Counted from the first letter of the stretch, positions 1-10,623 are shown. The stretch is 10,623 nucleotides of DNA from Syntrophomonadaceae bacterium (GCA_035353375.1 DAOPZM010000018.1:26713-37335); one strand, 5' to 3'. A program made the numbers and translations. Notes: generated from the letters alone by a model not told the origin.

Positions 1-742
1 GGCCGGTGTCAGGTGCCACGCCGACCGACATCAAGGTCAACTCGCTGTGGATGATTTCACCGTTATCCAGCAAAATTGTATTTCCTCTGTCGCGGAAAGC
101 AACCGCCGCGGTGCCGGTCAATACCCTTATACCGCGCAGCAGCAGTTCCTGCAGGACAAAGGCTGCCATCTCTTCATCAAGCGGCGGCAGGACCTGAGGA
201 GCTTTTTCGACCAGTGTAACTTCAAGGCCCCGGGTGACAAGACTCTCAGCCATTTCAAGCCCGATAAACCCCGCCCCTATCACTACCGCCTGCCGCGGAT
301 GTCTTTGGTTTATAAAAGCGGTAATTTTATCTACATCCGGAACATTTCGTAATGTAAACAGGTTTTCAGCTTCTTCCCAACCTTCCGCAGATGGAATTAT
401 AGCTGTGGCGCCGGGAGACAGAATCAGTTTGTCGTAACTTAGCGTGTAAGTGTCAATACCGCTCCTGACCGTAACTGCTTTCGCCTCCGCGTCAATGGCG
501 ATCGCTTCACTATAAGGCCGCACATCCAAAGCAAAACGGCTTTTCAAAGATTCCGGGGTCTGCACCAGCAGGGCATCCCGGTTTTGGATTTCACCGCCGG
601 CATAATAAGGCAGCCCGCAGTTGGCAAAAGAGACATAAGGGCCCTTTTCCAATACAATTATTTCTGCGTCTTCGTTCAAACGTCTTAATCGTGTGGCGGC
701 GGACATTCCGCCGGCAACACCCCCAATAATGACAACTCTCAT
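1..742 (-). CDS. FAD-dependent pyridine nucleotide-disulfide oxidoreductase, CoA-disulfide reductase / NADH oxidase-peroxidase family. Only the N-terminal ~247 aa are present; the 3' end lies beyond the left edge.
   Basis: My own translation of the reverse strand from the ATG at 742-740 is open to position 2: MRVVIIGGVAGGMSAATRLRRLNEDAEIIVLEKGPYVSFANCGLPYYAGGEIQNRDALLVQTPESLKSRFALDVRPYSEAIAIDAEAK...VVIGAGFIGLEMAESLVTRGLEVTLVEKAPQVLPPLDEEMA... It contains the GxGxxG FAD fold, the SFANCGLPYY single redox-Cys motif typical of CoADR/Nox/Npx, and a second GxGxxG/E NAD(P)H fold. An AAGGGG Shine-Dalgarno sequence sits ~8 nt upstream of the ATG. It is absent from the ORF track only because no stop codon lies inside the window. 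Confidence 0.88.
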   Translation of the reverse strand, partial: MRVVIIGGVAGGMSAATRLRRLNEDAEIIVLEKGPYVSFANCGLPYYAGGEIQNRDALLVQTPESLKSRFALDVRPYSEAIAIDAEAKAVTVRSGIDTYTLSYDKLILSPGATAIIPSAEGWEEAENLFTLRNVPDVDKITAFINQRHPRQAVVIGAGFIGLEMAESLVTRGLEVTLVEKAPQVLPPLDEEMAAFVLQELLLRGIRVLTGTAAVAFRDRGNTILLDNGEIIHSELTLMSVGVAPDTG

Positions 743-998: not shown

Positions 999-1367
999 AT
1001 GATCAGAGTCCAGTCGATTGAAAAGTGTGACTGTGATGTAATTCATGAGGATATCGTTGCGCAGGTGAAAAATATAATGCCTGAGGAAGAGACTCTTTAT
1101 GATCTGGCTGAATTGTTTAAAGTTTTTGGCGATACAACCAGAATAAAGATTCTATGGGCATTGGATTCAGCTGAAATGTGTGTCTGTGACATTGCTTATT
1201 TGTTGAATATGACCCAATCAGCCATTTCACATCAATTAAGAGTACTGAAGCAGGCCAAGCTGGTTAAAAACCGCAGAGAAGGGAAAATAGTTTTCTACTC
1301 GCTGGATGATGAGCATATAAAGCAAATATTTGAACTGGGTTTAATTCATATTTCCGAGGAAGAATAA
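999..1367 (+). CDS. cadC: ArsR/SmtB-family metal-sensing transcriptional repressor, CadC-like (thiolate alpha3N site plus alpha5 site)
   Basis: 122-aa ORF with a GGGAGG Shine-Dalgarno sequence 8 nt upstream. The winged-helix core is LAELFKVFGDTTRIKILWAL...MCVCDIAYLLNMTQSAISHQLRVLKQAKLV. N-terminal Cys pair in EKCDCD plus CVC in helix alpha3 form the alpha3N Cd/Pb/Zn site. The C-terminal DEHIKQIFELGLIHISE fits the alpha5 pattern DxHx10Hx2E. It is translationally adjacent to a P1B ATPase. Confidence 0.88.
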   Translation: MIRVQSIEKCDCDVIHEDIVAQVKNIMPEEETLYDLAELFKVFGDTTRIKILWALDSAEMCVCDIAYLLNMTQSAISHQLRVLKQAKLVKNRREGKIVFYSLDDEHIKQIFELGLIHISEEE

Positions 1368-1384
1368 ACCCTGGAGGACTGATA

Positions 1385-3307
1385 ATGTTGAAGCAGGATG
1401 AAGCAGCGGTTGCAGCCAGAATTGAAGCGAATAAAAACCCGGGCGACGAGGACAAATCAAATTTAAAAAAACAGGCAGTGATATTTTTATTCGGCGGAAC
1501 TTTATTTGCAGCCGGGGCGATTTTTACTTTCCCGGTTGGTCTGGAACTTACCGTATTCCTGCTGAGCTATTTGATTGTCGGCGGAAGCGTCATTTGGCGG
1601 GCAGTTAAAGGTATAGTCAGGGGGCAGGTGTTTAGTGAGCACTTCCTGATGAGTGTTGCTACGATTGGGGCTTTTTGTGTTGGGGCCTATTCTGAGGGGG
1701 CAGCTGTCATGCTGTTCTATCTGGTGGGTGAGATGTTTCAGGATATGGCGGTTGATCATTCCCGGAAATCGATTGGGATATTAATGGATATCAGACCGGA
1801 TTATGCCAATCTTAAAATTGGTGACGAAATAAAAAAGGTATCTCCTGAAGAAGTTTTATGCGGCGAAATAATAATCGTAAAGCCGGGCGAAAAGGTCCCC
1901 CTTGACGGCAGGGTCACAGAAGGAAAATCGATGGCCGATACATCTGCATTGACCGGCGAATCAGTCCCGCGCGCATTGGAACCCGGATGTGAGGTCTTAA
2001 GCGGATTTATAAATAATAATGGTGTTTTAACGGTTGAAGTGACTAAAACATACAGTGAATCAACTGTGGCCAGGATTTTGGATCTGGTTGAAAATGCCGG
2101 CAGCAGGAAAGCTCCCACCGAGGATTTTATAACAAAATTCGCCGGGTATTATACGCCGGTGGTGGTGTTTGGAGCGTTGGCACTGGCAATCATACCGCCT
2201 TTGGCAATCCCCGGGGCAGCTTTTTCTGACTGGATATACCGGTCCCTGATATTCCTGGTGATTTCTTGTCCCTGTGCATTAGTGATTTCCATTCCCCTGG
2301 GATTTTTCGGGGGGATCGGCGGAGCTTCCAAAAGAGGCATACTGGTAAAGGGCAGCAACTATCTGGAAGCTTTGAATAAAGTGGAGACAGTTGTTTTTGA
2401 CAAGACCGGCACATTAACCAAAGGTGTATTTAAAGTTACAGAAATAAATCCGCAAAATAATTATACCGGGGAAGAGCTCATCGAATACGCAGCTTATGCT
2501 GAGAGCTATTCCAACCACCCGATCGCGCTTTCAATCATAGAGGCATATAAGGCTGAACCAGATAAAAACCGGATTGAAAATTATGAAGAAATTGCCGGTC
2601 ATGGCATCAAGGTAACTGTCGACGGCCAAGAAGTTCTGGCCGGAAACAGCTGGCTGATGGCTGCTGAAAACATCAAATACAGCGAAGCTTGCGCGGCAGG
2701 GACAGTGATACATGTGGCAATAAACAAGGTGTATGCCGGTCATATTGTGGCAGCAGATGAAGTAAAGGAAGATGCTGCCCTGGCCATTAAAGAGCTTAAA
2801 GCCCTGGGGGTCAGGAAAACGGTAATGCTTACCGGAGATTTAAAAAGTATCGGCGACAGGGTCGGCCGGCAATTAGGCTTGGATGAGGTTTATGCTGAAT
2901 TACTGCCGGCTGACAAAGTCGATAAACTTGAAATACTGGAGAACCAAAAATCCCGTAAAGGGAAGGTGGCTTTCGTTGGTGACGGCATAAACGATGCCCC
3001 GGTTTTAGCCAGAGCGGATATCGGCATAGCCATGGGAGGACTTGGTTCGGATGCGGCGATTGAAGCTGCAGACATTGTAATTATGAACGATCAACCATCC
3101 AATATTGCAACTGCCATAAAAGTTGCCCGCCGAACCAGGAACATAGTATTGCAGAACATCGTATTTGCCCTGGGAGTTAAAGCTGCATTCCTGGTATTGG
3201 GCGGAGCAGGTCTGGCTACCATGTGGGAAGCAGTATTTGCGGATGTGGGGGTAGCATTGCTGGCGGTTTTTAATGCTATGAGGGTTATGTATACCAAAAG
3301 CATATAA
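1385..3307 (+). CDS. cadA: Heavy-metal-translocating P1B-2-type ATPase (Zn2+/Cd2+/Pb2+ exporter) lacking an N-terminal HMA metal-binding domain
   Basis: 640-aa ORF with a GGAGGA Shine-Dalgarno sequence 6 nt upstream. Motifs present: TGES (SALTGESVP), CPC in TM6 (ISCPCALVISIP), DKTGTLT, SNHP, GDGINDAP, and the TM7/TM8 signatures NIVFALGVK (Nx7K) and DVGVALLAVFN (DxGx7N). The N-terminus (MLKQDEAAVAARIEANKNPGDEDK...) has no CxxC motif or His-rich stretch. Confidence 0.92.
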   Translation: MLKQDEAAVAARIEANKNPGDEDKSNLKKQAVIFLFGGTLFAAGAIFTFPVGLELTVFLLSYLIVGGSVIWRAVKGIVRGQVFSEHFLMSVATIGAFCVGAYSEGAAVMLFYLVGEMFQDMAVDHSRKSIGILMDIRPDYANLKIGDEIKKVSPEEVLCGEIIIVKPGEKVPLDGRVTEGKSMADTSALTGESVPRALEPGCEVLSGFINNNGVLTVEVTKTYSESTVARILDLVENAGSRKAPTEDFITKFAGYYTPVVVFGALALAIIPPLAIPGAAFSDWIYRSLIFLVISCPCALVISIPLGFFGGIGGASKRGILVKGSNYLEALNKVETVVFDKTGTLTKGVFKVTEINPQNNYTGEELIEYAAYAESYSNHPIALSIIEAYKAEPDKNRIENYEEIAGHGIKVTVDGQEVLAGNSWLMAAENIKYSEACAAGTVIHVAINKVYAGHIVAADEVKEDAALAIKELKALGVRKTVMLTGDLKSIGDRVGRQLGLDEVYAELLPADKVDKLEILENQKSRKGKVAFVGDGINDAPVLARADIGIAMGGLGSDAAIEAADIVIMNDQPSNIATAIKVARRTRNIVLQNIVFALGVKAAFLVLGGAGLATMWEAVFADVGVALLAVFNAMRVMYTKSI

Positions 3308-3550: not shown

Positions 3551-4933
3551 TCAGATAAGATTGCGCCGTTTGGCTTCAAATTCCAATTCATCCCTGAAAT
3601 CGGGGTGGGCAACGCTGATTATATTTTTCACCCGCTGGCGGATAGACTGGCCCTTGATCTTGGCGGCACCGTACTCGGTTATGACATAATCAGCACATGA
3701 CCTGGGAGTAGTAATAATGCCCCCGGGTGTGATCTGTGGTGCAATTTTGGATATCATCTGGCCGCCGCCGCTTCTGGGAGTAGCAGTTGCAGTAGTGGCG
3801 ATAATCGACACCCCGCCTTTGGATTGGAATGCCCCGTCAACAAAATCAAGCTGTCCGCCCGGATGGGTATATTGTTTATAACCCATGGATTCCGAACAGA
3901 TCTGACCGGTCAGATCCACCTGCAGGCAGGCATTGATGGAGACCAGATTATCATTTTTGCCGATAATATACGGATTGTTAACAAAATTGACCGGGTAAAA
4001 CTCGATGCCGGGATTGTCATCTATCCAGTCGTAGAGTTTACGGGTGCCCATGGCGAAAGTAAAGATCGACCGGTAGGGCATAAAGGTCTTGCGCCGGTTG
4101 GTCACAACTTCGGCCTCCCACAAGTTGATCATAGTATCACAGGCCATTTCCGAATGGATACCGAGATCCTTGACATGAGTATCAAGAAATGCCTGGGCGA
4201 CTGCATTAGGTATGCTGCCTATCCCTAACTGAATGGTGGAACCGTCTTTGACAAATTCAGCGCAGCAGCGGCCGATAGTATCTTCTTCCGGAGTCATGGG
4301 GGCAGTATCAGGCAGAACCGCTAAATCCTGATCCTGCTCGACAATGGCGGTTATCTCGGAAATATGCAGGTAATTCATGCCCCGGCTCCGCGGCACCTGG
4401 TTATTGACCTGGGCCAGGACCATATAACGGTCATCCCCCTCGCGGCGTTTTTGAGCGGCATTTTTGGCTATCGCCAGAGTGGCATCAGCCCCAACACCCA
4501 GGCAAAAGTAGCCGTGTTTATCCATAGGAGTAACTAACACCATCGCTGTTTGCATAGGACGGAAGTTTTCATCGGTATAAATTTTTGGCAGTTCACAAAA
4601 GCGGTTGGGTGTCAGGGTAAATTCCCCGCTGACCACCAAATCGCGGCTAACCGAAGGATAGCCGCAGTCAACTCTGATATTGCTTTCCCGGCCCAGCTTG
4701 CGCCAGGTATTCTGCGGGTGGATATCGACGATGTGATTGATAGTTATATTTTCCACTTCCGGTTCCCGCGCTACCAATGCATCCACCAGTGCCAAAGGTA
4801 CAGGAACGGCTATTCCTATCCAGACCTCGGTATTGTTTTTTACCATTTTGGCAGCCTGCCCGGCTGACATTAACCTCTCCTTATACATTTCCTTTAAATT
4901 CAAAACTGTGCCCTCCTCGAAAAATTTCCACAT
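3551..4933 (-). CDS. CoA-transferase of the acetyl-CoA hydrolase/transferase family (4-hydroxybutyrate CoA-transferase / butyryl-CoA:acetate CoA-transferase-like)
   Basis: 460-aa ORF. YKERLMSAGQAAKMV resembles the YKEKLVTAE.A N-terminus of Cat2/AbfT-type enzymes. Also present: TIQLGIGSIPNAV, LGIHSEM, VSINACLQVDLTGQICSESMG (catalytic-Glu region), GGQLDFVDGA, and a C-terminal SVAHPDFRDELEFEAKRR. The start is ambiguous. The ATG at 4933 has its Shine-Dalgarno sequence abutting it. The in-frame ATG at 4888 (MYKERL) has a poor Shine-Dalgarno sequence. The ATG at 4870 (MSAGQ) follows AAGGAGAGG at ideal spacing. Confidence 0.85.
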   Translation of the reverse strand: MWKFFEEGTVLNLKEMYKERLMSAGQAAKMVKNNTEVWIGIAVPVPLALVDALVAREPEVENITINHIVDIHPQNTWRKLGRESNIRVDCGYPSVSRDLVVSGEFTLTPNRFCELPKIYTDENFRPMQTAMVLVTPMDKHGYFCLGVGADATLAIAKNAAQKRREGDDRYMVLAQVNNQVPRSRGMNYLHISEITAIVEQDQDLAVLPDTAPMTPEEDTIGRCCAEFVKDGSTIQLGIGSIPNAVAQAFLDTHVKDLGIHSEMACDTMINLWEAEVVTNRRKTFMPYRSIFTFAMGTRKLYDWIDDNPGIEFYPVNFVNNPYIIGKNDNLVSINACLQVDLTGQICSESMGYKQYTHPGGQLDFVDGAFQSKGGVSIIATTATATPRSGGGQMISKIAPQITPGGIITTPRSCADYVITEYGAAKIKGQSIRQRVKNIISVAHPDFRDELEFEAKRRNLI

Positions 4934-5279: not shown

Positions 5280-5309
5280 TTGCAAAAAAAAGTTAGCTTA
5301 TGTTATAAT
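5280..5309 (+). promoter_or_regulatory. Strong sigma-A-type promoter with extended -10
   Basis: TTGCAA (5280-5285), an 18-nt spacer, then TGtTATAAT (TG at 5301-5302, TATAAT at 5304-5309). No protein-coding gene follows it for ~950 nt. Confidence 0.65.
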
Positions 5310-5316
5310 ACATTTA

Positions 5317-5520
5317 GTCCGAAAGGATAAAAAAGATCTTAATGACCTGCCAGGGGAGCGTACAAGGGTTGCTTGACTGGCGTAAAAAGGAAACTAGGAT
5401 ATGTAGTCGGGCGTACCATAGTTGCTCGGTTACAAACTAGTGGTGGGTTCTCTTTAATGAGAACCTGATCATTAGAGAAAATTAACATCCCATCACTGAA
5501 AAGTGGTGGGATTTTTAATT
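5317..5520 (+). ncRNA. ~200-nt structured leader or small RNA with mutually exclusive antiterminator/terminator pairings; RNA class unassigned
   Basis: It starts at the predicted +1 of the 5280 promoter and ends at an intrinsic terminator. GTGGTGGG occurs twice (5440-5447 and 5503-5510), and both copies can pair with CCCATCAC (5489-5496). There is a perfect GGTTCTC/GAGAACC hairpin at 5446-5465. It contains an internal imperfect tandem duplication (GCGTAC..GTTGCT..AAACTAG appears twice). It shares the decamer TTAACATCCC with element 3 (5482-5491 vs 6014-6023). Confidence 0.5.
5487..5520 (+). terminator. Rho-independent terminator of leader 1
   Basis: A 10-bp stem ATCCCATCAC / GTGGTGGGAT (one G-U pair), loop TGAAAA, followed by TTTTTAATTT. 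Confidence 0.7.
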
Positions 5521-5749
5521 TGGAATCAGTAAAGAAGCGGACTTTTGACCATTTTATCAACTGCAGCAACAGCAGGACCATATGCTGGTAACCGCATTTC
5601 GCCCGGAGTTGACAGACGATTTAAGGATCCATAAGTATTTCCCGGGTATGGGCTGAAGTGTTCAAAATATCCAAAATTAAAAATATTGAAACTTTTTATA
5701 TTATGCAGGAACAAAATGTATACTTGTCGAAAAAGCTTATAATAAAAAA

Positions 5750-5850
5750 TATGCTCCGAGCCTTTTGACCTAAAGTTTTTTAGCTACGGTTTTCAGGCCG
5801 TCAGGGTGCATTCGGAAACGGGTGTGCCTCCCATTGTGGAAAGGAGAAGC
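5750..5850 (+). promoter_or_regulatory. Moco (molybdenum/tungsten cofactor) riboswitch aptamer, Moco RNA motif
   Basis: The three conserved strings I associate with the Moco RNA motif occur in the correct order: CUCCGAGCC (5754-5762), GCCUCCC (5826-5832) and GGAAAGG (5838-5844). A hairpin capped by a GAAA tetraloop immediately precedes GCCUCCC (CATTCG-GAAA-CGGGTG, 5809-5824). CCUUUU (5761-5766) can pair with GAAAGG (5839-5844). A TATAAT -10 box lies at 5738-5743, with a poor -35. Confidence 0.68.
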
Positions 5851-5866
5851 TGTATCAGGCCTGATT

Positions 5867-5904
5867 AAAGGCGGATTGCTTGTCGCAATCCGCCTTTATT
5901 GTTT
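5867..5904 (+). terminator. Rho-independent terminator (expression platform of riboswitch element 2)
   Basis: A perfect 13-bp stem AAAGGCGGATTGC / GCAATCCGCCTTT, loop TTGTC, followed by ATTGTTT. Confidence 0.8.
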
Positions 5905-5944
5905 ATCCGGCCATTGATGTAATATAAATAAAAATTTAATTTGT

Positions 5945-6040
5945 TGTTTCGAGTCTTTCTTCCTGCAGCCATCCTGGTATGGAAAAAGACCAATGTGCTA
6001 ACCCGGAAACAGGTTAACATCCCGCTTGGAAAGGAGCAAT
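5945..6040 (+). promoter_or_regulatory. Second, more divergent Moco-riboswitch-like aptamer
   Basis: Its layout is colinear with element 2. It has UUUCGAGUC (5947-5955) where element 2 has CUCCGAGCC. It has a hairpin with a GAAA tetraloop, TAACCCG-GAAA-CAGGTTA (6000-6017). This is followed by ACAUCCC (6017-6023), a 4-nt linker, and GGAAAGGAG (6028-6036). Confidence 0.42.
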
Positions 6041-6058
6041 TTTATTTAAATATTTTTC

Positions 6059-6093
6059 AGCTGGGATGGTTTTCTGTCCCAGCTTCTTTATTT
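6059..6093 (+). terminator. Rho-independent terminator (expression platform of element 3)
   Basis: Stem AGCTGGGA / TCCCAGCT (6059-6066 / 6077-6084), a 10-nt loop, followed by TCTTTATTT. Confidence 0.65.
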
Positions 6094-6174
6094 GAGAAGG
6101 AAGGAGCGGTAATAAACTTATATTCTGCAATTAAGGCCATGATTGAAGAGTACTCAGGAAAGTTGTGCCTTATA

Positions 6175-6217
6175 AATATTCTGTTGCCAAACTGATTTGG
6201 CTCAGCGGCAGAATATT
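6175..6217 (+). promoter_or_regulatory. Compound stem-loop in the 5' UTR just upstream of the surface-protein Shine-Dalgarno sequence
   Basis: AATATTCTG..GCC (6175-6188) pairs with GGCAGAATATT (6207-6217). This encloses a perfect inner hairpin GCCAAA-CTGA-TTTGGC (6186-6201). No U-tract follows, so it is not a terminator. Confidence 0.35.
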
Positions 6218-6258
6218 GTTGAATAGTGGTGAATCAATAAATTTAGGAGGAATAGTAG

Positions 6259-8469
6259 ATGCATAGGATGACGAAAAAATTATCAGGAATTTTTTTATTA
6301 ACGATGCTGGTATTATTGCCGGTCTTATGGGGCTCTGATGAAGCAAGCGCAGCAAGTACCAGCCTTACGGTTACAAAGCTTGCTTCTGATGGTGAGACTG
6401 TCATCGCCGAGAGAACTGTTGATTATGAGTGGCTCATGGATCCTGACAATATAAGAGTAATGGGGGACGGAAATACCCATTATTATCACCAGGGACCGGT
6501 ATTTATCGACGACCCTGATGAACAGGCCGAAGAACAGCTGCGCTGGAATCCGGAGGAAGATACAAACGTAGAGGACAAGGATATGGGAGCTGTAATGGGT
6601 ACCAATGTTGAAGATCTCTGCGAGCTGGTCGGAGGTATGTCGCGCGGTGAAACATTACAGATTAAAGCCAGTGACGGTCTTAAAAAAATGTTTGATTATG
6701 AAAATGTGTACGGCTATTCCAGCAAGGAAGGGCCTATGGTTGTCTGCTGGTATAAAGACGGCATGTACCCGGACACCGGATATAGCGACGGCATGCGGCT
6801 GGTCTGGTTTGCCGATGATTCCACCAACCCTTGGGGAATCAACGTTTTCGGCAATTGGGACTGGCACGAAGCTGCTGATTCTGAATACTGGTATTATTAT
6901 CGCAGCGGCGGTGAAAGTTATCCAACTACCACCGGACTTTCGATACAAAATGTTGCTTATTTGACCATTTACAGCAATGAAGACCCGCCTAAAGAACCGG
7001 AAGCTGATTTTAAAGCGGACAAAACCTCCGGTTATGCACCTCTTTCCGTCAAATTTACTGACAAGTCTGCTAATTCTCCCAGTGAATATGAATGGGACTT
7101 TGATAATGACGGTAAGGTAGATTCTACCGATCAAAACCCGAGCTTTAAATACAGTGAACCGGGAGTCTATACAGTCTGTCTTACTGCAGCCAATAGTATC
7201 GGCAGCGACGAGATGGTTAAGGCCGATTACATTACAGTCAGGGAAAAACCGTCAACCAAGACCCTGTTCAATGGCACGGTGGATTTGACATCAGGAAAAA
7301 CTATAAACGTGACGGCCTATAACTCAAATTCAAAATATGAGGTGAGTGAGACAACGACCCTGGGTGCGCTTGCAGCAGCAGCCGATGAGAAAAACTTCGA
7401 TTATGAAGTTACGGATAAAAAATATTCACAGTCGGGCGTGCTTCTCCTGGATGAGATCGAGAGTTATATAAGCGATGATCCCGGGGACTGGTATGTTTAT
7501 ATCAATGATGTTTATAAAGACAGCTACAATAAAAAATCTCACGCTTTAAACCTGCTTGAACTTAAAGATGGTGACGAAGTTGATTTCTACTATGCAGAGG
7601 ATATTAACGATCCGGATGATATTGATGATGTTGAGTATTGGGCATCAGCCGCAATAAAAATTGCTGTGTCGATCAGTGAGGCTGCCAGCAAGCCGGTTGC
7701 AGCTTTTACTGCCGCCCCTGTCAATGGTACGGAACCTCTGACAGTCAGTTTTATCAACCAGTCTACCGGTACTGGACCGTTAACTTATGAATGGGATTTT
7801 GACAATGACGGGCTGGCAGACTCCACTGACCGTAATCCGGAATATATTTATAAGACTGCCGGGACTTACACGGTCAAACTGACAGTAACTAATGAAGCCG
7901 GCAGCGATGAGGAAATCAAGACGGGCTATATTACGGCCAAAGCTTCGGATATAGCTGCATTATATGACATTGCCGGACACTGGGCCCAGGGGAGTATAGA
8001 AAGTCTGTTGGCCTCAGGAGCTGTCAGCGGCTATCCTGACAATAGCTTCAGGCCGGATGCGACAATTACCCGGGGCGAGTTTGTCACTATCCTGGTAAAA
8101 GCTTTCAAACTCGAACCTGGGACCGGAAAATTATTCACAGATACGACCGGCCACTGGGCCAAAGACTATATTTCTGCTGCCGCAGCGCTGGGGATTGTAA
8201 ATGGTTACGATGTAAATTGCTTTGGCCCCGATGACCTGATCACCCGGGAACAGATGGCAGTGATGATTATCAAAGCGCTGGATATCGGACTGATACCCGG
8301 TGACCCTGCATTTTCCGACCAGACCAGCATCTCTGACTGGGCAAAAAGTTCAGTAAAAACGGCCGGCGAGGAAGGGATTTTATCGGGGTATCCGGATAAC
8401 ACCTTCCGTCCGCAGGGTAATGCAACCAGGGCAGAGGCGGTGATGGTAATTGCAAAGGCTTTGGAATAA
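6259..8469 (+). CDS. Sec-exported, SLH-anchored multidomain cell-surface protein. Domain order: signal peptide, ~210-aa N-terminal domain (sulfite-oxidase-family-like pattern), PKD, DUF4430-like, PKD, 3x SLH.
   Basis: 736-aa ORF with an AGGAGG Shine-Dalgarno sequence 8 nt upstream. Domains by nucleotide range:
- Signal peptide: MHRMTKKLSGIFLLTMLVLLPVLWGSDEASA, with no twin-arginine motif.
- N-terminal domain: ~6355-6990.
- PKD 1: ~7000-7240 (PLSVKFTDKS...WDFDNDGKVDS...NPSFKYSEPGVYTVCLTAANSIGSDE).
- DUF4430-like: ~7261-7600 (TTLGAL...GDWYVYINDV...LKDGDEVDFYYAE).
- PKD 2: ~7693-7940.
- Three SLH repeats: ~7966-8466 (DIAGHWAQ..., FTDTTGHWAKDYI..., FSDQTSISDWAKSSV...GYPDNTFRPQGNATRAEA). Confidence 0.9.
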   Translation: MHRMTKKLSGIFLLTMLVLLPVLWGSDEASAASTSLTVTKLASDGETVIAERTVDYEWLMDPDNIRVMGDGNTHYYHQGPVFIDDPDEQAEEQLRWNPEEDTNVEDKDMGAVMGTNVEDLCELVGGMSRGETLQIKASDGLKKMFDYENVYGYSSKEGPMVVCWYKDGMYPDTGYSDGMRLVWFADDSTNPWGINVFGNWDWHEAADSEYWYYYRSGGESYPTTTGLSIQNVAYLTIYSNEDPPKEPEADFKADKTSGYAPLSVKFTDKSANSPSEYEWDFDNDGKVDSTDQNPSFKYSEPGVYTVCLTAANSIGSDEMVKADYITVREKPSTKTLFNGTVDLTSGKTINVTAYNSNSKYEVSETTTLGALAAAADEKNFDYEVTDKKYSQSGVLLLDEIESYISDDPGDWYVYINDVYKDSYNKKSHALNLLELKDGDEVDFYYAEDINDPDDIDDVEYWASAAIKIAVSISEAASKPVAAFTAAPVNGTEPLTVSFINQSTGTGPLTYEWDFDNDGLADSTDRNPEYIYKTAGTYTVKLTVTNEAGSDEEIKTGYITAKASDIAALYDIAGHWAQGSIESLLASGAVSGYPDNSFRPDATITRGEFVTILVKAFKLEPGTGKLFTDTTGHWAKDYISAAAALGIVNGYDVNCFGPDDLITREQMAVMIIKALDIGLIPGDPAFSDQTSISDWAKSSVKTAGEEGILSGYPDNTFRPQGNATRAEAVMVIAKALE

Positions 8470-8612
8470 TTTAATTAATTGTAATTTCGGGAAAGTATCG
8501 GAGAAATGCTGCGGATAAAGAGTTCACATTCTTCCAAAAGGGGTGATAGAAACAATTAGATTTTTAACTGCTGAAGCATATTGATAAATTTTTAAAAGAG
8601 GGGAGAAAGTTG

Positions 8613-10623
8613 ATGGACAACCTGATAAAGAAAACTTTGGGAATACTGCTGGTCGCATTTATGCTTTTGATAACGGTAGTATTATCACCGGCAGAAGCAA
8701 GCGTAACAGCAGGGACAACCAGCCTTACCATCAAAAAGCTTGCTAATGACGGAACGACTGTTTTAAGCCAGAAGACTGTCACCTATCAGGAGTTAATGGC
8801 CGGGGAACTTAATGATGACACGGTTATACCCATATTAGGCGATGGAACTACTCATTATTATCACCAGGGACCGGTATTTGTCGACGATCCTGATGAGGCA
8901 ACCGAACAGACGCTTCGCTGGAATCAAGCGGAAGATACCAGTGTCCTGACTAAGGATATGGGGGCTGTCAAGGGTACCAATGTGAAGGACCTCTGTGACT
9001 TGGTCGGAGGTATGGTAACAGGTGATACATTACAAATTAAAGCCAGTGACGGTCTTAAGAAAACGTTTGCTTATGAAAATGTGTACGGATACTCGGTTCG
9101 TGAGGGGCCAATGGCGATATGCTGGTATAAGGACGGAGGAACTCCTGAAACAACCTATACCGAGGGCATGCGCCTGGTCTGGTTTGCCGATGATTCAGTC
9201 AACACATTGGGTGAGGGCGGAGCAGGTGTTCATGCCTTCGGCAACTGGGACTGGCACGAAGCTGCGGCTGAACAATACTGGTACTTTTACACGGATACTA
9301 CAGTAACAGGAACAGGAACTGAAACTGAATATTACCCTACCACAACCGGCCTGTCTGTACAAAAAGTTTCCGAATTGATTATATTAAGTGATGAAGAACC
9401 GCCGGCGCCGACAGCTGCCTTTACATCCGATGTACAATCCGGTGCAGCACCGCTGACAGTCAGCTTCACTGACCAGTCCACCTATAATCCCACTTCTTGG
9501 GCCTGGGATTTCAATAATGACAGTACGGTGGATTCTACCGAACAGAACCCCGAGTTTACTTATGAAACAGCCGGGACCTATACGGTTAAAATGACAGCGA
9601 CCAATGCAAAAGGCAACGATGAAGAGATAAAGACTGACTACATTACAGTAAGTCCTGCTCATGCTGACTTCCCCATACAGTTAATCGGTACGTCAACTGT
9701 TGACATGAGTAAAGCCGATATGGAAGGATTGCTTAATACAGCCAATACTTATACCGATAGCAACGGTAATATTTTTGCAGGCGTACCATTACAGCAACTG
9801 ATCGCTAAAGTGGATGATAATGATACTGCCACATTAAATACTTCACTTTTGGGAACCTATAATATTGTGTTTACAGGTTTGAACCAGGATGGGACCGACT
9901 TTGTTAAAACCGCGGCAGCAGGCAGTTGGAGTACCATGATTACGGATGGGAATATCCAGACCAATGACGTGTTTGTCGCTACCAAGGTAAAGATCGGTGG
10001 AACCGGTGAATTTGCCGATCTGCCACTTGTAAGTGTCAACAATGCAACTAAAAACTGGCGCCCAGGTATTTTGAACGGCAGCGGGATAACCGGATCAGGA
10101 AACCGCATCGGCGGGTTATACAAAATCGAATTGACTGGTCTTGCGGCGGTAGCACCGACAGCTGCCTTCACATCCGATGTACAATCCGGTGCAGCACCGC
10201 TGACGGTCAGCTTTACTGACCAGTCCACCGGAACCCCGACATCATGGGCCTGGGATTTCAATAATGACAGTACGGTGGATTCTACCGAACAGAATCCCGA
10301 ATTTACTTATGAAACAGCCGGGACCTATACGGTTAAACTGACAGCGACCAATACTGAAGGCAACGATGAAGAGATAAAGAATGACTACATTACGGTTACT
10401 GAAGCATCGACCATGGACGTACTGTATGACGGAACAGTTGCTTTAACACTTAATAAAACCTTCGATGTGACGGCTTACAACTCGTCTGCTTCTTATACAG
10501 TCGATGAAACTACCCCGTTGGGAGCACTACAGGCAACCGGCTTGACCTATGGAGTAACAGATAAGAATTATGCAAGCTCAGGAGCTTTGCTATTGGACAA
10601 TGTAGGAACTTATCTGCGTGATA
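8613..10623 (+). CDS. Paralogous Sec-exported multidomain surface protein, 3'-truncated by the window edge. Domain order: signal peptide, same N-terminal domain, PKD, second diverged molybdopterin-oxidoreductase-like domain, PKD, DUF4430-like...
   Basis: My own translation from the ATG at 8613 (GAGGGGAG Shine-Dalgarno sequence 7 nt upstream) is open through 10623: MDNLIKKTLGILLVAFMLLITVVLSPAEASVTAGTTSLTIKKLANDGTTVLSQKTVTYQELM...GDGTTHYYHQGPVFVDDPDE...LQIKASDGLKKTFAYENVYGY...GMRLVWFADDS...FGNWDWHEAA...YPTTTGLSVQKV... PKD domains lie at ~9411-9650 and ~10158-10397. A middle domain lies at ~9660-10140 (GVPLQQLIAKV...IVFTGLNQDGTDF...GGLYKIELTG). A DUF4430-like start follows (VLYDGTVALTLNKTFDVTAYN...TTPLGALQATGLTYGVTDKNY...). 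It is absent from the ORF track because no stop codon lies in the window. Confidence 0.88.
   Translation, partial: MDNLIKKTLGILLVAFMLLITVVLSPAEASVTAGTTSLTIKKLANDGTTVLSQKTVTYQELMAGELNDDTVIPILGDGTTHYYHQGPVFVDDPDEATEQTLRWNQAEDTSVLTKDMGAVKGTNVKDLCDLVGGMVTGDTLQIKASDGLKKTFAYENVYGYSVREGPMAICWYKDGGTPETTYTEGMRLVWFADDSVNTLGEGGAGVHAFGNWDWHEAAAEQYWYFYTDTTVTGTGTETEYYPTTTGLSVQKVSELIILSDEEPPAPTAAFTSDVQSGAAPLTVSFTDQSTYNPTSWAWDFNNDSTVDSTEQNPEFTYETAGTYTVKMTATNAKGNDEEIKTDYITVSPAHADFPIQLIGTSTVDMSKADMEGLLNTANTYTDSNGNIFAGVPLQQLIAKVDDNDTATLNTSLLGTYNIVFTGLNQDGTDFVKTAAAGSWSTMITDGNIQTNDVFVATKVKIGGTGEFADLPLVSVNNATKNWRPGILNGSGITGSGNRIGGLYKIELTGLAAVAPTAAFTSDVQSGAAPLTVSFTDQSTGTPTSWAWDFNNDSTVDSTEQNPEFTYETAGTYTVKLTATNTEGNDEEIKNDYITVTEASTMDVLYDGTVALTLNKTFDVTAYNSSASYTVDETTPLGALQATGLTYGVTDKNYASSGALLLDNVGTYLRD
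9408..9650 (+). repeat. Copy A of a ~243-bp intragenic direct repeat (a whole PKD module)
   Basis: It aligns without gaps to 10155-10397. By eye I count ~20 mismatches, about 92% identity. The offset is 747 bp (249 codons), so the copies are in frame. Confidence 0.85.
10155..10397 (+). repeat. Copy B of the ~243-bp intragenic direct repeat (PKD module)
   Basis: Same alignment as copy A. Mismatches cluster in one ~15-nt patch (TATAATCCCACTTCT vs GGAACCCCGACATCA) and in a second short patch (GCAAAA vs ACTGAA). Confidence 0.85.

Follow-up and report, generated by a model that had tools for sequence, protein, structure and literature searches.

Why should two riboswitches of the molybdenum cofactor (Moco) class stand in front of genes for large surface proteins? 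The question is raised by a stretch of 10,623 nucleotides (nt) from a Syntrophomonadaceae bacterium (GCA_035353375.1, DAOPZM010000018.1:26713-37335), which we call the window. An earlier note on this DNA had held that Moco-sensing leaders in its second half control surface proteins rather than moa, mod or tup genes, and had suggested a surface capture system for molybdenum or tungsten oxyanions or a pterin. We arrive at a related picture, to which we assign a probability of about 60%: P3-less riboswitches of the proposed tungsten-cofactor type, acting as OFF switches, would gate an operon whose products form an extracytoplasmic capture and relay layer feeding the binding protein WtpA. The surface proteins in question, the products of genes A and B, are probably an accessory part of tungsten uptake that is common to syntrophic bacteria and methanogens.

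The leader of gene A contains two aptamers of the Rfam family RF01055, for which the gathering score is 36 bits (Table 1). Each of them spans the full model, positions 1-135 of 135. In both Rfam alignments the positions of P3 are deletions, and between the closing GGCC of P2 and the AGGG of P4 only 2-4 nt are found in 21 of 21 related aptamers (alignment A2). A covariance model of our own, built on 21 related aptamers, scores aptamer 1 with 110.8 bits and aptamer 2 with 87.2 bits. A strong hairpin followed by a T-run begins 3-7 nt 3' of each aptamer (5 nt in leader 1), and a hairpin with U-tract lies downstream of 18 of 22 related aptamers. If leader 2 is folded without the right arm of its terminator, the left arm pairs with the aptamer core CAUCCCGCUUGG and forms a competing antiterminator, as an OFF switch should. 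The same folding of leader 1 gives no clean prediction of such a pairing. From this organisation we infer that the two aptamers act as independent transcription-terminating OFF riboswitches, whose tandem arrangement should sharpen the response. The P3-less subtype of Moco RNAs was proposed by Breaker's group to sense the tungsten cofactor, and the evidence for the ligand of the Moco RNA family itself is genetic (PMC2408646). The window holds two Moco-class aptamers and not three: a leader at 5317, also taken for Moco-sensing in the earlier note, is not a Moco aptamer, as Rfam finds nothing there at E<=10 and our own model matches no more than a short skeleton.

Which genes stand behind these leaders becomes visible on the parent contig (ENA k141_175180, 56.9 kb; NCBI GCA_035404145.1, a Syntrophomonadaceae metagenome-assembled genome, MAG), which contains an exact match of the gene A product. 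Inside the window the surface proteins are indeed the only + strand genes downstream of the leaders. On the parent contig this no longer holds, as the same-strand cluster continues into wtpA, inside which the 22-kb locus that we extracted (L081) ends. Gene B follows gene A after 143 nt and is itself followed, 148 nt further on, by a secreted purple-acid-phosphatase-like metallophosphoesterase of 445 amino acids (aa). A membrane-anchored N-domain variant (288 aa) begins 2 nt after it and overlaps by 4 nt with a membrane-anchored PF00174 protein (193 aa), and 33 nt later comes gene 6, a WtpA-type binding protein with TIGR03730 as its best model. For this WtpA equivalog model the cutoff is 242.75 bits; the protein from L081, cut by the end of the locus to 228 aa, reaches 205 bits over model positions 2-184, and the syntenic full-length WtpA of Methanoregula reaches 329 bits. 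The 22 kb contain no further Moco RNA besides the pair in the window, and terminator-like sites are no commoner than in shuffled sequence, with none located between genes. The complete operon of nine genes is found on single contigs in two more Syntrophomonadaceae genomes, again with Moco RNAs in the leader. It runs from genes A and B over the metallophosphoesterase, the N-domain variant and the small PF00174 protein to WtpA, WtpB, WtpC (with TOBE domain) and a further N-domain/PKD protein; for permease and ATPase, WtpB and WtpC are the best matches with scores below the cutoffs. As the cluster continues into genes that best match wtpABC, the regulon probably contains a canonical tungsten/molybdenum transporter, and the view that the leaders serve surface proteins instead of mod- or tup-type genes has to be given up.

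Both surface proteins carry the SLH and PKD domains that had been described. For gene A, Pfam reports SLH with 143 bits (three repeats) and PKD_4 with 90 bits (two copies); for gene B, PKD_4 reaches 100 bits in the window part (two copies) and SLH reaches 115 bits in the full-length protein. The full-length product of gene B starts with signal peptide, N-domain, PKD, a Cys-less domain resembling the sulfite-oxidase fold (SUOX), PKD and two DUF4430-like modules, and continues with SUOX-type repeats, a second N-domain, cadherin-like and Big_3 domains and three SLH repeats. Direct inspection of both signal peptides, which had been called Sec-type, confirms a K-rich n-region, a hydrophobic core, an AxA site and no RR. 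The label DUF4430 does not survive: in the window copy Pfam gives no match to this family even at E<=10, and in the full-length gene B product the module scores 17.7 bits against PF14478, below the gathering score of 23.8 bits. The module itself is a true repeat, of which the related loci that we fetched contain 108 copies, and 6 of 15 homologous copies match PF14478 weakly (best E 0.0013). A homologue search with the module returned no matches, and its AlphaFold model, computed from an alignment of four rows, is unusable (predicted local distance difference test, pLDDT, 41).

The unit that genes A and B have in common is the N-terminal domain of about 210 aa, the N-domain. It has no match in Pfam at E<=10 and neither a Pfam nor an NCBIfam model, and a HMMER search of 1.84 billion representatives (clustered at 50% identity) places 624 clusters in its family at E<=1e-3. 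Relatives are 57-72% identical to the N-domain of the window, including pairs of a Firmicute with a member of the Methanomicrobiales, and share the invariant motifs GDG-THYYHQGPVF, KDMGAVKGT, LVGGM, FGN-DWHE and YPTTTGLS. Comparison by hhalign with the small PF00174 proteins of the same operons yields 97.5% probability and an E of 7.7e-12; these small proteins in turn match sulfite oxidases of the PDB (1ogp, E 2.5e-5). The AlphaFold model of the N-domain has a pLDDT of 78.5 and a predicted template modelling (TM) score of 0.80, and its seven best PDB matches in Foldseek are PruR pterin-binding proteins (E 0.013-0.17, probability 0.77-0.99, TM 0.43-0.60 on the target and about 0.4 on the query). 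Searches of the PDB with single sequences, the N-domain or a gene B repeat, gave nothing significant. Since profile comparison and structure model agree, we assign the N-domain as a divergent domain of predicted sulfite-oxidase fold (SUOX, Oxidored_molyb). PruR is a Sec-exported, non-enzymatic SUOX fold without molybdenum-ligating cysteine that binds free pterins (PMC11194511), and this removes the objection to a SUOX-type domain working outside the cell.

The alignment of the N-domain contains no invariant cysteine and one nearly invariant cysteine in the LC-LVGG helix, and in the small PF00174 proteins the position expected for the molybdenum ligand is not occupied by a conserved cysteine. 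Distal gene B and its relatives carry SUOX-type repeats with an invariant Cys-x4-His (consensus LAC-GSGH; 143 copies in 45 loci), one of which in gene B matches PF00174 at 50.5 bits (cutoff 24). The Cys and His of this motif may together bind a metal or cofactor within a Sec-exported protein; HMMER aligns just the C-terminal half of these repeats with sulfite oxidases, and the cysteine is at most a putative equivalent of the molybdenum ligand. The PTTTG loop of the N-domain recalls the TTTS oxyanion motif of TupA (PMC5517513), which is a resemblance only. Two secreted N-domain homologues of 270-290 aa from Methanoregulaceae (P0021 and P0102) bear the NCBI name 'argininosuccinate synthase', which looks like an annotation error propagated among MAGs.

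Recurrence of the arrangement was followed with a degenerate-pattern scan of one genome per GTDB species, which found 247 relatives of the N-domain. The best 80 of these 247 come from Syntrophomonas, Syntrophothermus, Pelotomaculum, Desulfotomaculaceae, Dehalococcoidia and Chloroflexota among the bacteria, and from Methanolinea, Methanoregula and other Methanomicrobiales among the archaea. Moco RNAs were searched with Rfam in the bacterial loci and with our own covariance model in 86 sources (890 kb), and genes in the loci were annotated with home-made hidden Markov models. All 24 Moco matches in the 890 kb are bacterial and P3-less. A P3-less Moco RNA stands directly 5' of orthologues in at least 11 other assemblies from several families, and in 12 of the 13 bacterial loci where an N-domain gene heads its cluster a Moco RNA lies within 400 nt upstream, L011 being the exception, so that the expectation of repeated association with Moco motifs is borne out. 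Loci without Moco RNA hold the ninth gene of the operon (after WtpC), or genes behind other secreted SUOX-like proteins, or are short contigs, and a search with filters off finds no hidden copies in them. A Moco RNA also lies directly 5' of the metallophosphoesterase in L019 and of the N-domain variant in L021. Locus L004 (1-5780) contains divergent Moco RNAs, with tupA (TTTS motif)-tupB-tupC-moeA-moeA on the minus strand and an N-domain surface-protein operon on the plus strand. In L039 (939-4579) and L046 (from 1408) a P3-less Moco RNA is followed by a transporter of the energy-coupling factor (ECF) type just upstream of the N-domain operon; it consists of a PF09819 S component, a fused double ATPase and a CbiQ/EcfT subunit, and the S component ends in a SUOX-like extracytoplasmic tail (hhalign 65.7%, E 5.8e-5).

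Three Syntrophomonas-type loci add an aptamer for cyclic di-GMP (c-di-GMP) to the same leader: c-di-GMP-II aptamers, each with its own terminator, are found in L005 (880-965, 56.2 bits), L008 (3837-3922, 57.7 bits) and L018 (5500-5583, 51.7 bits), where the order is Moco, c-di-GMP-II, Moco. The pairing of c-di-GMP-II with Moco is absent from the list of a 2022 review of tandem riboswitches (PMC9481103). Locus L007 (3188-8393) also couples a surface protein with an importer under riboswitch control, this time with no N-domain: its tandem Moco RNAs are followed by a SLH/Big_5 surface protein of 936 aa, a Big_5 protein of 284 aa and a FecCD-family permease.

In archaea the same genes occur without the RNA, as our covariance model finds no Moco RNA in the archaeal loci. 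The N-domain proteins of Methanoregulaceae and Methanolinea mostly have 270-370 aa with a signal peptide and a C-terminal membrane anchor. The gene order equals that of the bacteria (N-domain, N-domain variant, small PF00174 protein, WtpA, WtpB, WtpC), and wtpABC is followed, often after the metallophosphoesterase, by more N-domain proteins. In 21 of 49 Methanomicrobiales loci wtpA lies within 6 kb, and one archaeal locus has moeA nearby. Identity between Syntrophomonas and Methanoregula amounts to 59% for the N-domain protein, 51% for the small PF00174 protein and 45% for the N-domain variant, compared with 42% for WtpA, 41% for WtpB and 44% for WtpC. Judged by these alignments, the accessory proteins appear conserved between the domains of life at least as much as the transporter. 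High cross-domain identity together with shared gene order implies that the module moved between syntrophic partners, that is, between the bacteria and methanogens of syntrophic consortia by inter-domain transfer.

These observations can be joined into a mechanism in which the tandem riboswitches control a long operon from gene A through wtpABC. Besides a secreted phosphoesterase and two SUOX-fold proteins anchored in the membrane, the encoded layer would comprise arrays of SUOX-fold and DUF4430-like modules attached to the S-layer. The Sec-exported SUOX-fold modules would be kept at a distance from the cell by PKD spacers and SLH anchors, and there the layer could concentrate or process tungsten (or molybdenum) species and hand them over to WtpA. 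An ample supply of tungsten cofactor inside the cell would switch the entire unit off. As the putative ligand, synteny with wtpABC points to an oxyanion, or to a thio- or mineral-bound form of it. A more far-reaching version, which we consider rather doubtful, is that syntrophs and methanogens share a laterally transferred apparatus of SUOX-fold domains, some cysteine-less and some with Cys-His, that binds tungsten species or tungsto- or molybdopterin extracellularly; it could scavenge cofactor from lysed neighbours or allow sharing between partners. Such an apparatus would be the first extracytoplasmic harvest or relay system for tungsten or its pterin cofactor, and its expression in bacteria would integrate a tungsten-cofactor signal and, in some species, c-di-GMP.

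Several points weigh against capture and relay of tungsten as set out here. The nearest solved relatives of the N-domain bind pterins and not oxyanions. That P3-less RNAs are specific for the tungsten cofactor has been proposed in the literature (PMC2408646). Read-through from the leaders would have to extend across about 14 kb, and internal promoters could lie hidden in the gaps of 143-148 nt. The promoter of the leaders is itself ambiguous, with the sites at 5280-5309 and 5695-5724 both being candidates. In one bacterial locus (L011) the intergenic region 5' of an N-domain gene contains no Moco RNA. Finally, the c-di-GMP-II leaders suggest a link to attachment or aggregation that pure uptake leaves unexplained.

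The strongest rival is salvage or sensing of a pterin or cofactor, which we rate as unlikely. Here the extracellular ligand of the exported SUOX-fold modules would be a pterin-type molecule instead of the bare oxyanion, with molybdopterin, tungstopterin, Moco debris from lysed neighbours or a signalling pterin as candidates; the phosphoesterase would act on the cofactor in its phosphorylated or dinucleotide form, and import of the freed metal or of the pterin would follow. PruR, the best structural match, is just such a pterin-binding, Sec-exported and Cys-less SUOX fold, and a conserved purple-acid-phosphatase-like gene lies within the operon. Moco RNAs in L039 and L046 precede an importer of the vitamin and cofactor type with a SUOX-like tail on its S component, and those in L007 an SLH protein and a permease of the chelate-importing FecCD family. 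In addition, the highly conserved aromatic loops HYYHQGPVF and WYKDG are low-confidence parts of the model, which is typical of loops ordered by a ligand. The tight synteny across domains, however, is with the oxyanion transporter WtpABC, the Foldseek matches reach an E of just 0.01-0.17 with a TM of about 0.4 on the query, and the residues with which PruR contacts the pterin could not be aligned with the N-domain. Free Moco and molybdopterin are also very labile. The surface capture suggested in the earlier note is supported by context, namely by riboswitch recurrence, the PruR-like fold and wtpABC synteny, with a tungsten oxyanion or a pterin as its candidate ligand. That the proteins are instead surface-located molybdenum or tungsten enzymes of the sulfite-oxidase family, with the riboswitch matching apoenzyme synthesis to cofactor supply, appears quite improbable. 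Signals of the Sec type without twin arginine could not export a folded, cofactor-loaded domain, the N-domain and the small PF00174 protein lack a conserved cysteine at the molybdenum-ligand position, and neither L081 nor the two complete relatives encode a haem protein, cytochrome or other redox partner in the operon. A terminator right after the aptamer moreover implies that plentiful cofactor turns expression down, whereas an apoenzyme would require the reverse. What speaks for enzymes are the SUOX repeats of gene B and its relatives with their invariant Cys-x4-His, whose spacing from Cys to WxGVPL presumably resembles that of YedY-type enzymes, and the one gene B repeat above the PF00174 threshold. 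Regulski et al. considered this explanation in 2008 for the 'sulphite oxidase' genes of Syntrophomonas wolfei (PMC2408646).

Two further explanations dissolve the link between surface proteins and uptake. The proteins could be adhesins or S-layer parts for contact within aggregates or with partners, merely located beside or co-transcribed with a transporter which alone is served by the Moco leaders. We give this little credence: the conserved unit is the SUOX-fold domain and not the spacers, archaeal copies are often proteins of 270-300 aa with a membrane anchor only, the N-domain is more conserved across the domains of life than WtpA, and Moco RNAs precede N-domain genes also where wtpABC is not immediately downstream (L039, L046, L021). 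An architecture of SLH, PKD, cadherin-like and Big_3 domains is nevertheless typical of adhesins, c-di-GMP-II aptamers occur in the leaders of three related loci, and the best 80 of 247 relatives all belong to syntrophs or to methanogens that partner with them. Alternatively, the leaders could terminate constitutively or be relics, and gene A could have its own unrecognised promoter. Between terminator 2 and the start codon of gene A 164 nt are available, and our scans see sigma-70 consensus sites only. Within these limits the + strand of 6094-6258 holds no sigma-70-like site of at least 9/12 matches, as expected if no dedicated promoter is located there; both aptamers lie far above the threshold with intact cores, and the arrangement recurs in at least 11 other assemblies from several families. 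A complete lack of functional connection is for these reasons very improbable.

Table 1. Features of the leader region and of genes A and B; positions are counted from the first letter of the window unless locus L081 is named
Feature	Position	Strand	Details
Best sigma-70-like promoter of the intergenic region (consensus match)	5280-5309	+	TTGCAA-18-TATAAT, TG before -10 box; 10/12 match
Unit 1, structured RNA	5317-5520	+	own intrinsic terminator 5487-5512 plus T-run
Weak promoter-like site 5' of aptamer 1	5695-5724	+	TTTATA-18-TATACT; 9/12 match
Moco aptamer 1, P3-less	5742-5862	+	RF01055, 80 bits, E 1.5e-18
Terminator of leader 1	5866-5905	+	hairpin 5866-5898, 14-bp stem, then TTGTTTAT; dG (free energy) -20.5 kcal/mol
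Moco aptamer 2, P3-less	5935-6052	+	RF01055, 50.4 bits, E 7.2e-10
Terminator of leader 2	6059-6095	+	hairpin 6059-6084, 11 bp, plus T-run; dG -17.5
Gene A ribosome-binding site	6246-6251	+	AGGAGG (strong Shine-Dalgarno)
Gene A	6259-8469	+	736-aa S-layer-anchored protein
Gene A signal peptide	6259-6351	+	
Gene A N-domain	6355-6990	+	SUOX fold (predicted)
Gene A PKD 1	~6997-7248	+	
Gene A DUF4430-like module	7258-7671	+	140 aa
Gene A PKD 2	7690-7935	+	
Gene A SLH repeats	~7954-8466	+	three repeats
Gene B	8613-10623	+	first 670 of 2069 aa in window
Gene B signal peptide	8613-8699	+	
Gene B N-domain	8700-9410	+	
Gene B PKD 1	~9408-9653	+	
Gene B Cys-less SUOX-like domain	9666-10139	+	
Gene B PKD 2	10149-10397	+	
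Gene B DUF4430-like module	10410-10622	+	start of module
Gene B Cys-x4-His repeats	L081 15000-17420		residues ~880-1690, beyond window

The region upstream of the aptamers contains a further structured RNA of about 200 nt, unit 1. Its minimum free energy of -78.1 kcal/mol compares with -48.2 +/- 4.4 kcal/mol in shuffled sequences (z = -6.8). The sequence AGTGGTGGG at 5439-5447 duplicates the 3' arm of the unit 1 terminator, and this copy could form an antiterminator. We considered by eye whether unit 1 is a c-di-GMP-I or -II, T-box, cobalamin or ZTP aptamer, and searched it for Moco aptamers; Rfam returns no family at E<=10, and it shows no similarity to the leaders of related loci. With filters off, our Moco model yields a 40-nt match to a P1-only skeleton (13.7 bits) at 5305-5344 on the + strand, containing UCCGAAAGGA, which is probably the stretch that had been taken for a third leader and which is either a chance match or a relic. 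A metagenome scan with the poorly chosen pattern GACTGGCG-N10-40-GTCGGGCG gave chance matches only, none of them like unit 1. Unit 1 could be a small RNA or an unclassified leader 5' of the Moco leaders. Judged by its consensus match, the site at 5695-5724 may serve as an alternative start for the latter.

The first half of the window holds genes unrelated to the operon. The 5' part of a pyridine-nucleotide disulfide oxidoreductase with a rhodanese domain is located at 1-742 (-) according to the gene calls of the parent contig, an ArsR-family regulator followed by a heavy-metal P-type ATPase at 999-3307 (+), and an acetyl-CoA hydrolase/transferase at 3551-4933 (-).

Electrons pass between syntrophic fatty-acid oxidisers and methanogens by way of tungsten-dependent formate dehydrogenases and formylmethanofuran dehydrogenases, and in syntrophic habitats tungsten and molybdenum are scarce and complexed by sulfide. 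We know of no description of metal acquisition by these organisms beyond the binding proteins Tup, Wtp and Mod. The family described here is compact and tied to tungstate uptake by two independent lines, the riboswitch in bacteria and the conserved synteny in archaea, and it allows the 'sulphite oxidase' exceptions of the original Moco riboswitch paper to be re-read. If our picture is correct, the pterin-binding, non-enzymatic branch of the sulfite-oxidase fold represented by PruR would extend to Firmicutes, Chloroflexi and Archaea. The domain of 210 aa and the membrane-anchored protein of 190 aa are expressible targets for measuring extracellular binding of tungsten, molybdenum or pterin.

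How does this compare with what has been described? Already known are the riboswitch and its P3-less subtype, the use of tandem copies in Syntrophomonadaceae and the control of tungstate transporters; Moco or P3-less RNAs have been described 5' of tupABC, wtpABC, modABC and moa/moe operons. Regulski et al. (2008) reported complete riboswitches in tandem in S. wolfei, two P3-less RNAs 5' of 'putative sulphite oxidase' genes that were read as cofactor-using enzymes, and a triple array 5' of an operon with 'genes of unknown function' (PMC2408646); Sherlock et al. (2022) listed tandem tungsten-cofactor riboswitches 5' of assorted genes (PMC9481103). The locus studied here is like these in the RF01055 family, the absence of P3, the tandem arrangement with a terminator for each aptamer, the host family and the tungstate ATP-binding cassette transporter in the operon. 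It differs in that the first genes and most of the length encode large Sec-exported S-layer proteins with SUOX fold. In 2008 the S. wolfei equivalents were not recognised as a conserved extracytoplasmic module of wtpABC (PMC2408646). The earlier impression of an undescribed system is therefore largely correct for the module, and has to be qualified for the RNAs, which were on record in front of the S. wolfei genes. In the searchable literature we find neither recognition of a Sec-exported, largely cysteine-less SUOX-fold surface module of wtpABC, nor its sharing with Methanomicrobiales, nor the relationship to PruR.

PruR of Agrobacterium and other Proteobacteria (PDB 7kos, 7kom, 7kp2 and 7rkb) is a small periplasmic single-domain protein, encoded in a pruR-dcpA operon, in which the pterin is sandwiched by conserved Tyr/Trp residues together with an Asn (PMC11194511). 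Both it and the N-domain are Sec-exported SUOX-like folds without molybdenum-ligating cysteine, PruR being the best structural match to our model, and both have a connection to c-di-GMP, in PruR through its control of the cyclase/phosphodiesterase DcpA and here through the c-di-GMP-II aptamers of related leaders. In contrast to PruR, with which it shares about 10% identity, the N-domain exceeds it by about 60 residues and has additional conserved loops, has no dcpA partner, is fused to PKD and SLH domains, occurs in multiple copies, is tied to wtpABC under a Moco-class riboswitch, and its pterin binding is only putative. A similar logic of capture and relay is known from the NEAT haem relay of the Isd system in Gram-positives and from the surface B12 binders BtuG and BtuH of Bacteroides, where binding modules anchored to the wall or surface are co-regulated with a high-affinity importer for a scarce cofactor or metal and are kept off while the nutrient is plentiful; the DUF4430-like module bears a faint resemblance to the B12-binding domain family. 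These systems use other folds for other nutrients and are controlled by Fur or a B12 riboswitch instead of a Moco-class riboswitch, and the relay proposed here is a putative one. In WtpABC of Pyrococcus furiosus and other archaea (Bevers et al. 2006, in PMC2408646), to whose WtpA model our binding protein fits best, the classical operon consists of the transporter without genes for SUOX-fold, phosphoesterase or surface proteins, all of which stand next to wtpABC in the operon presented here.

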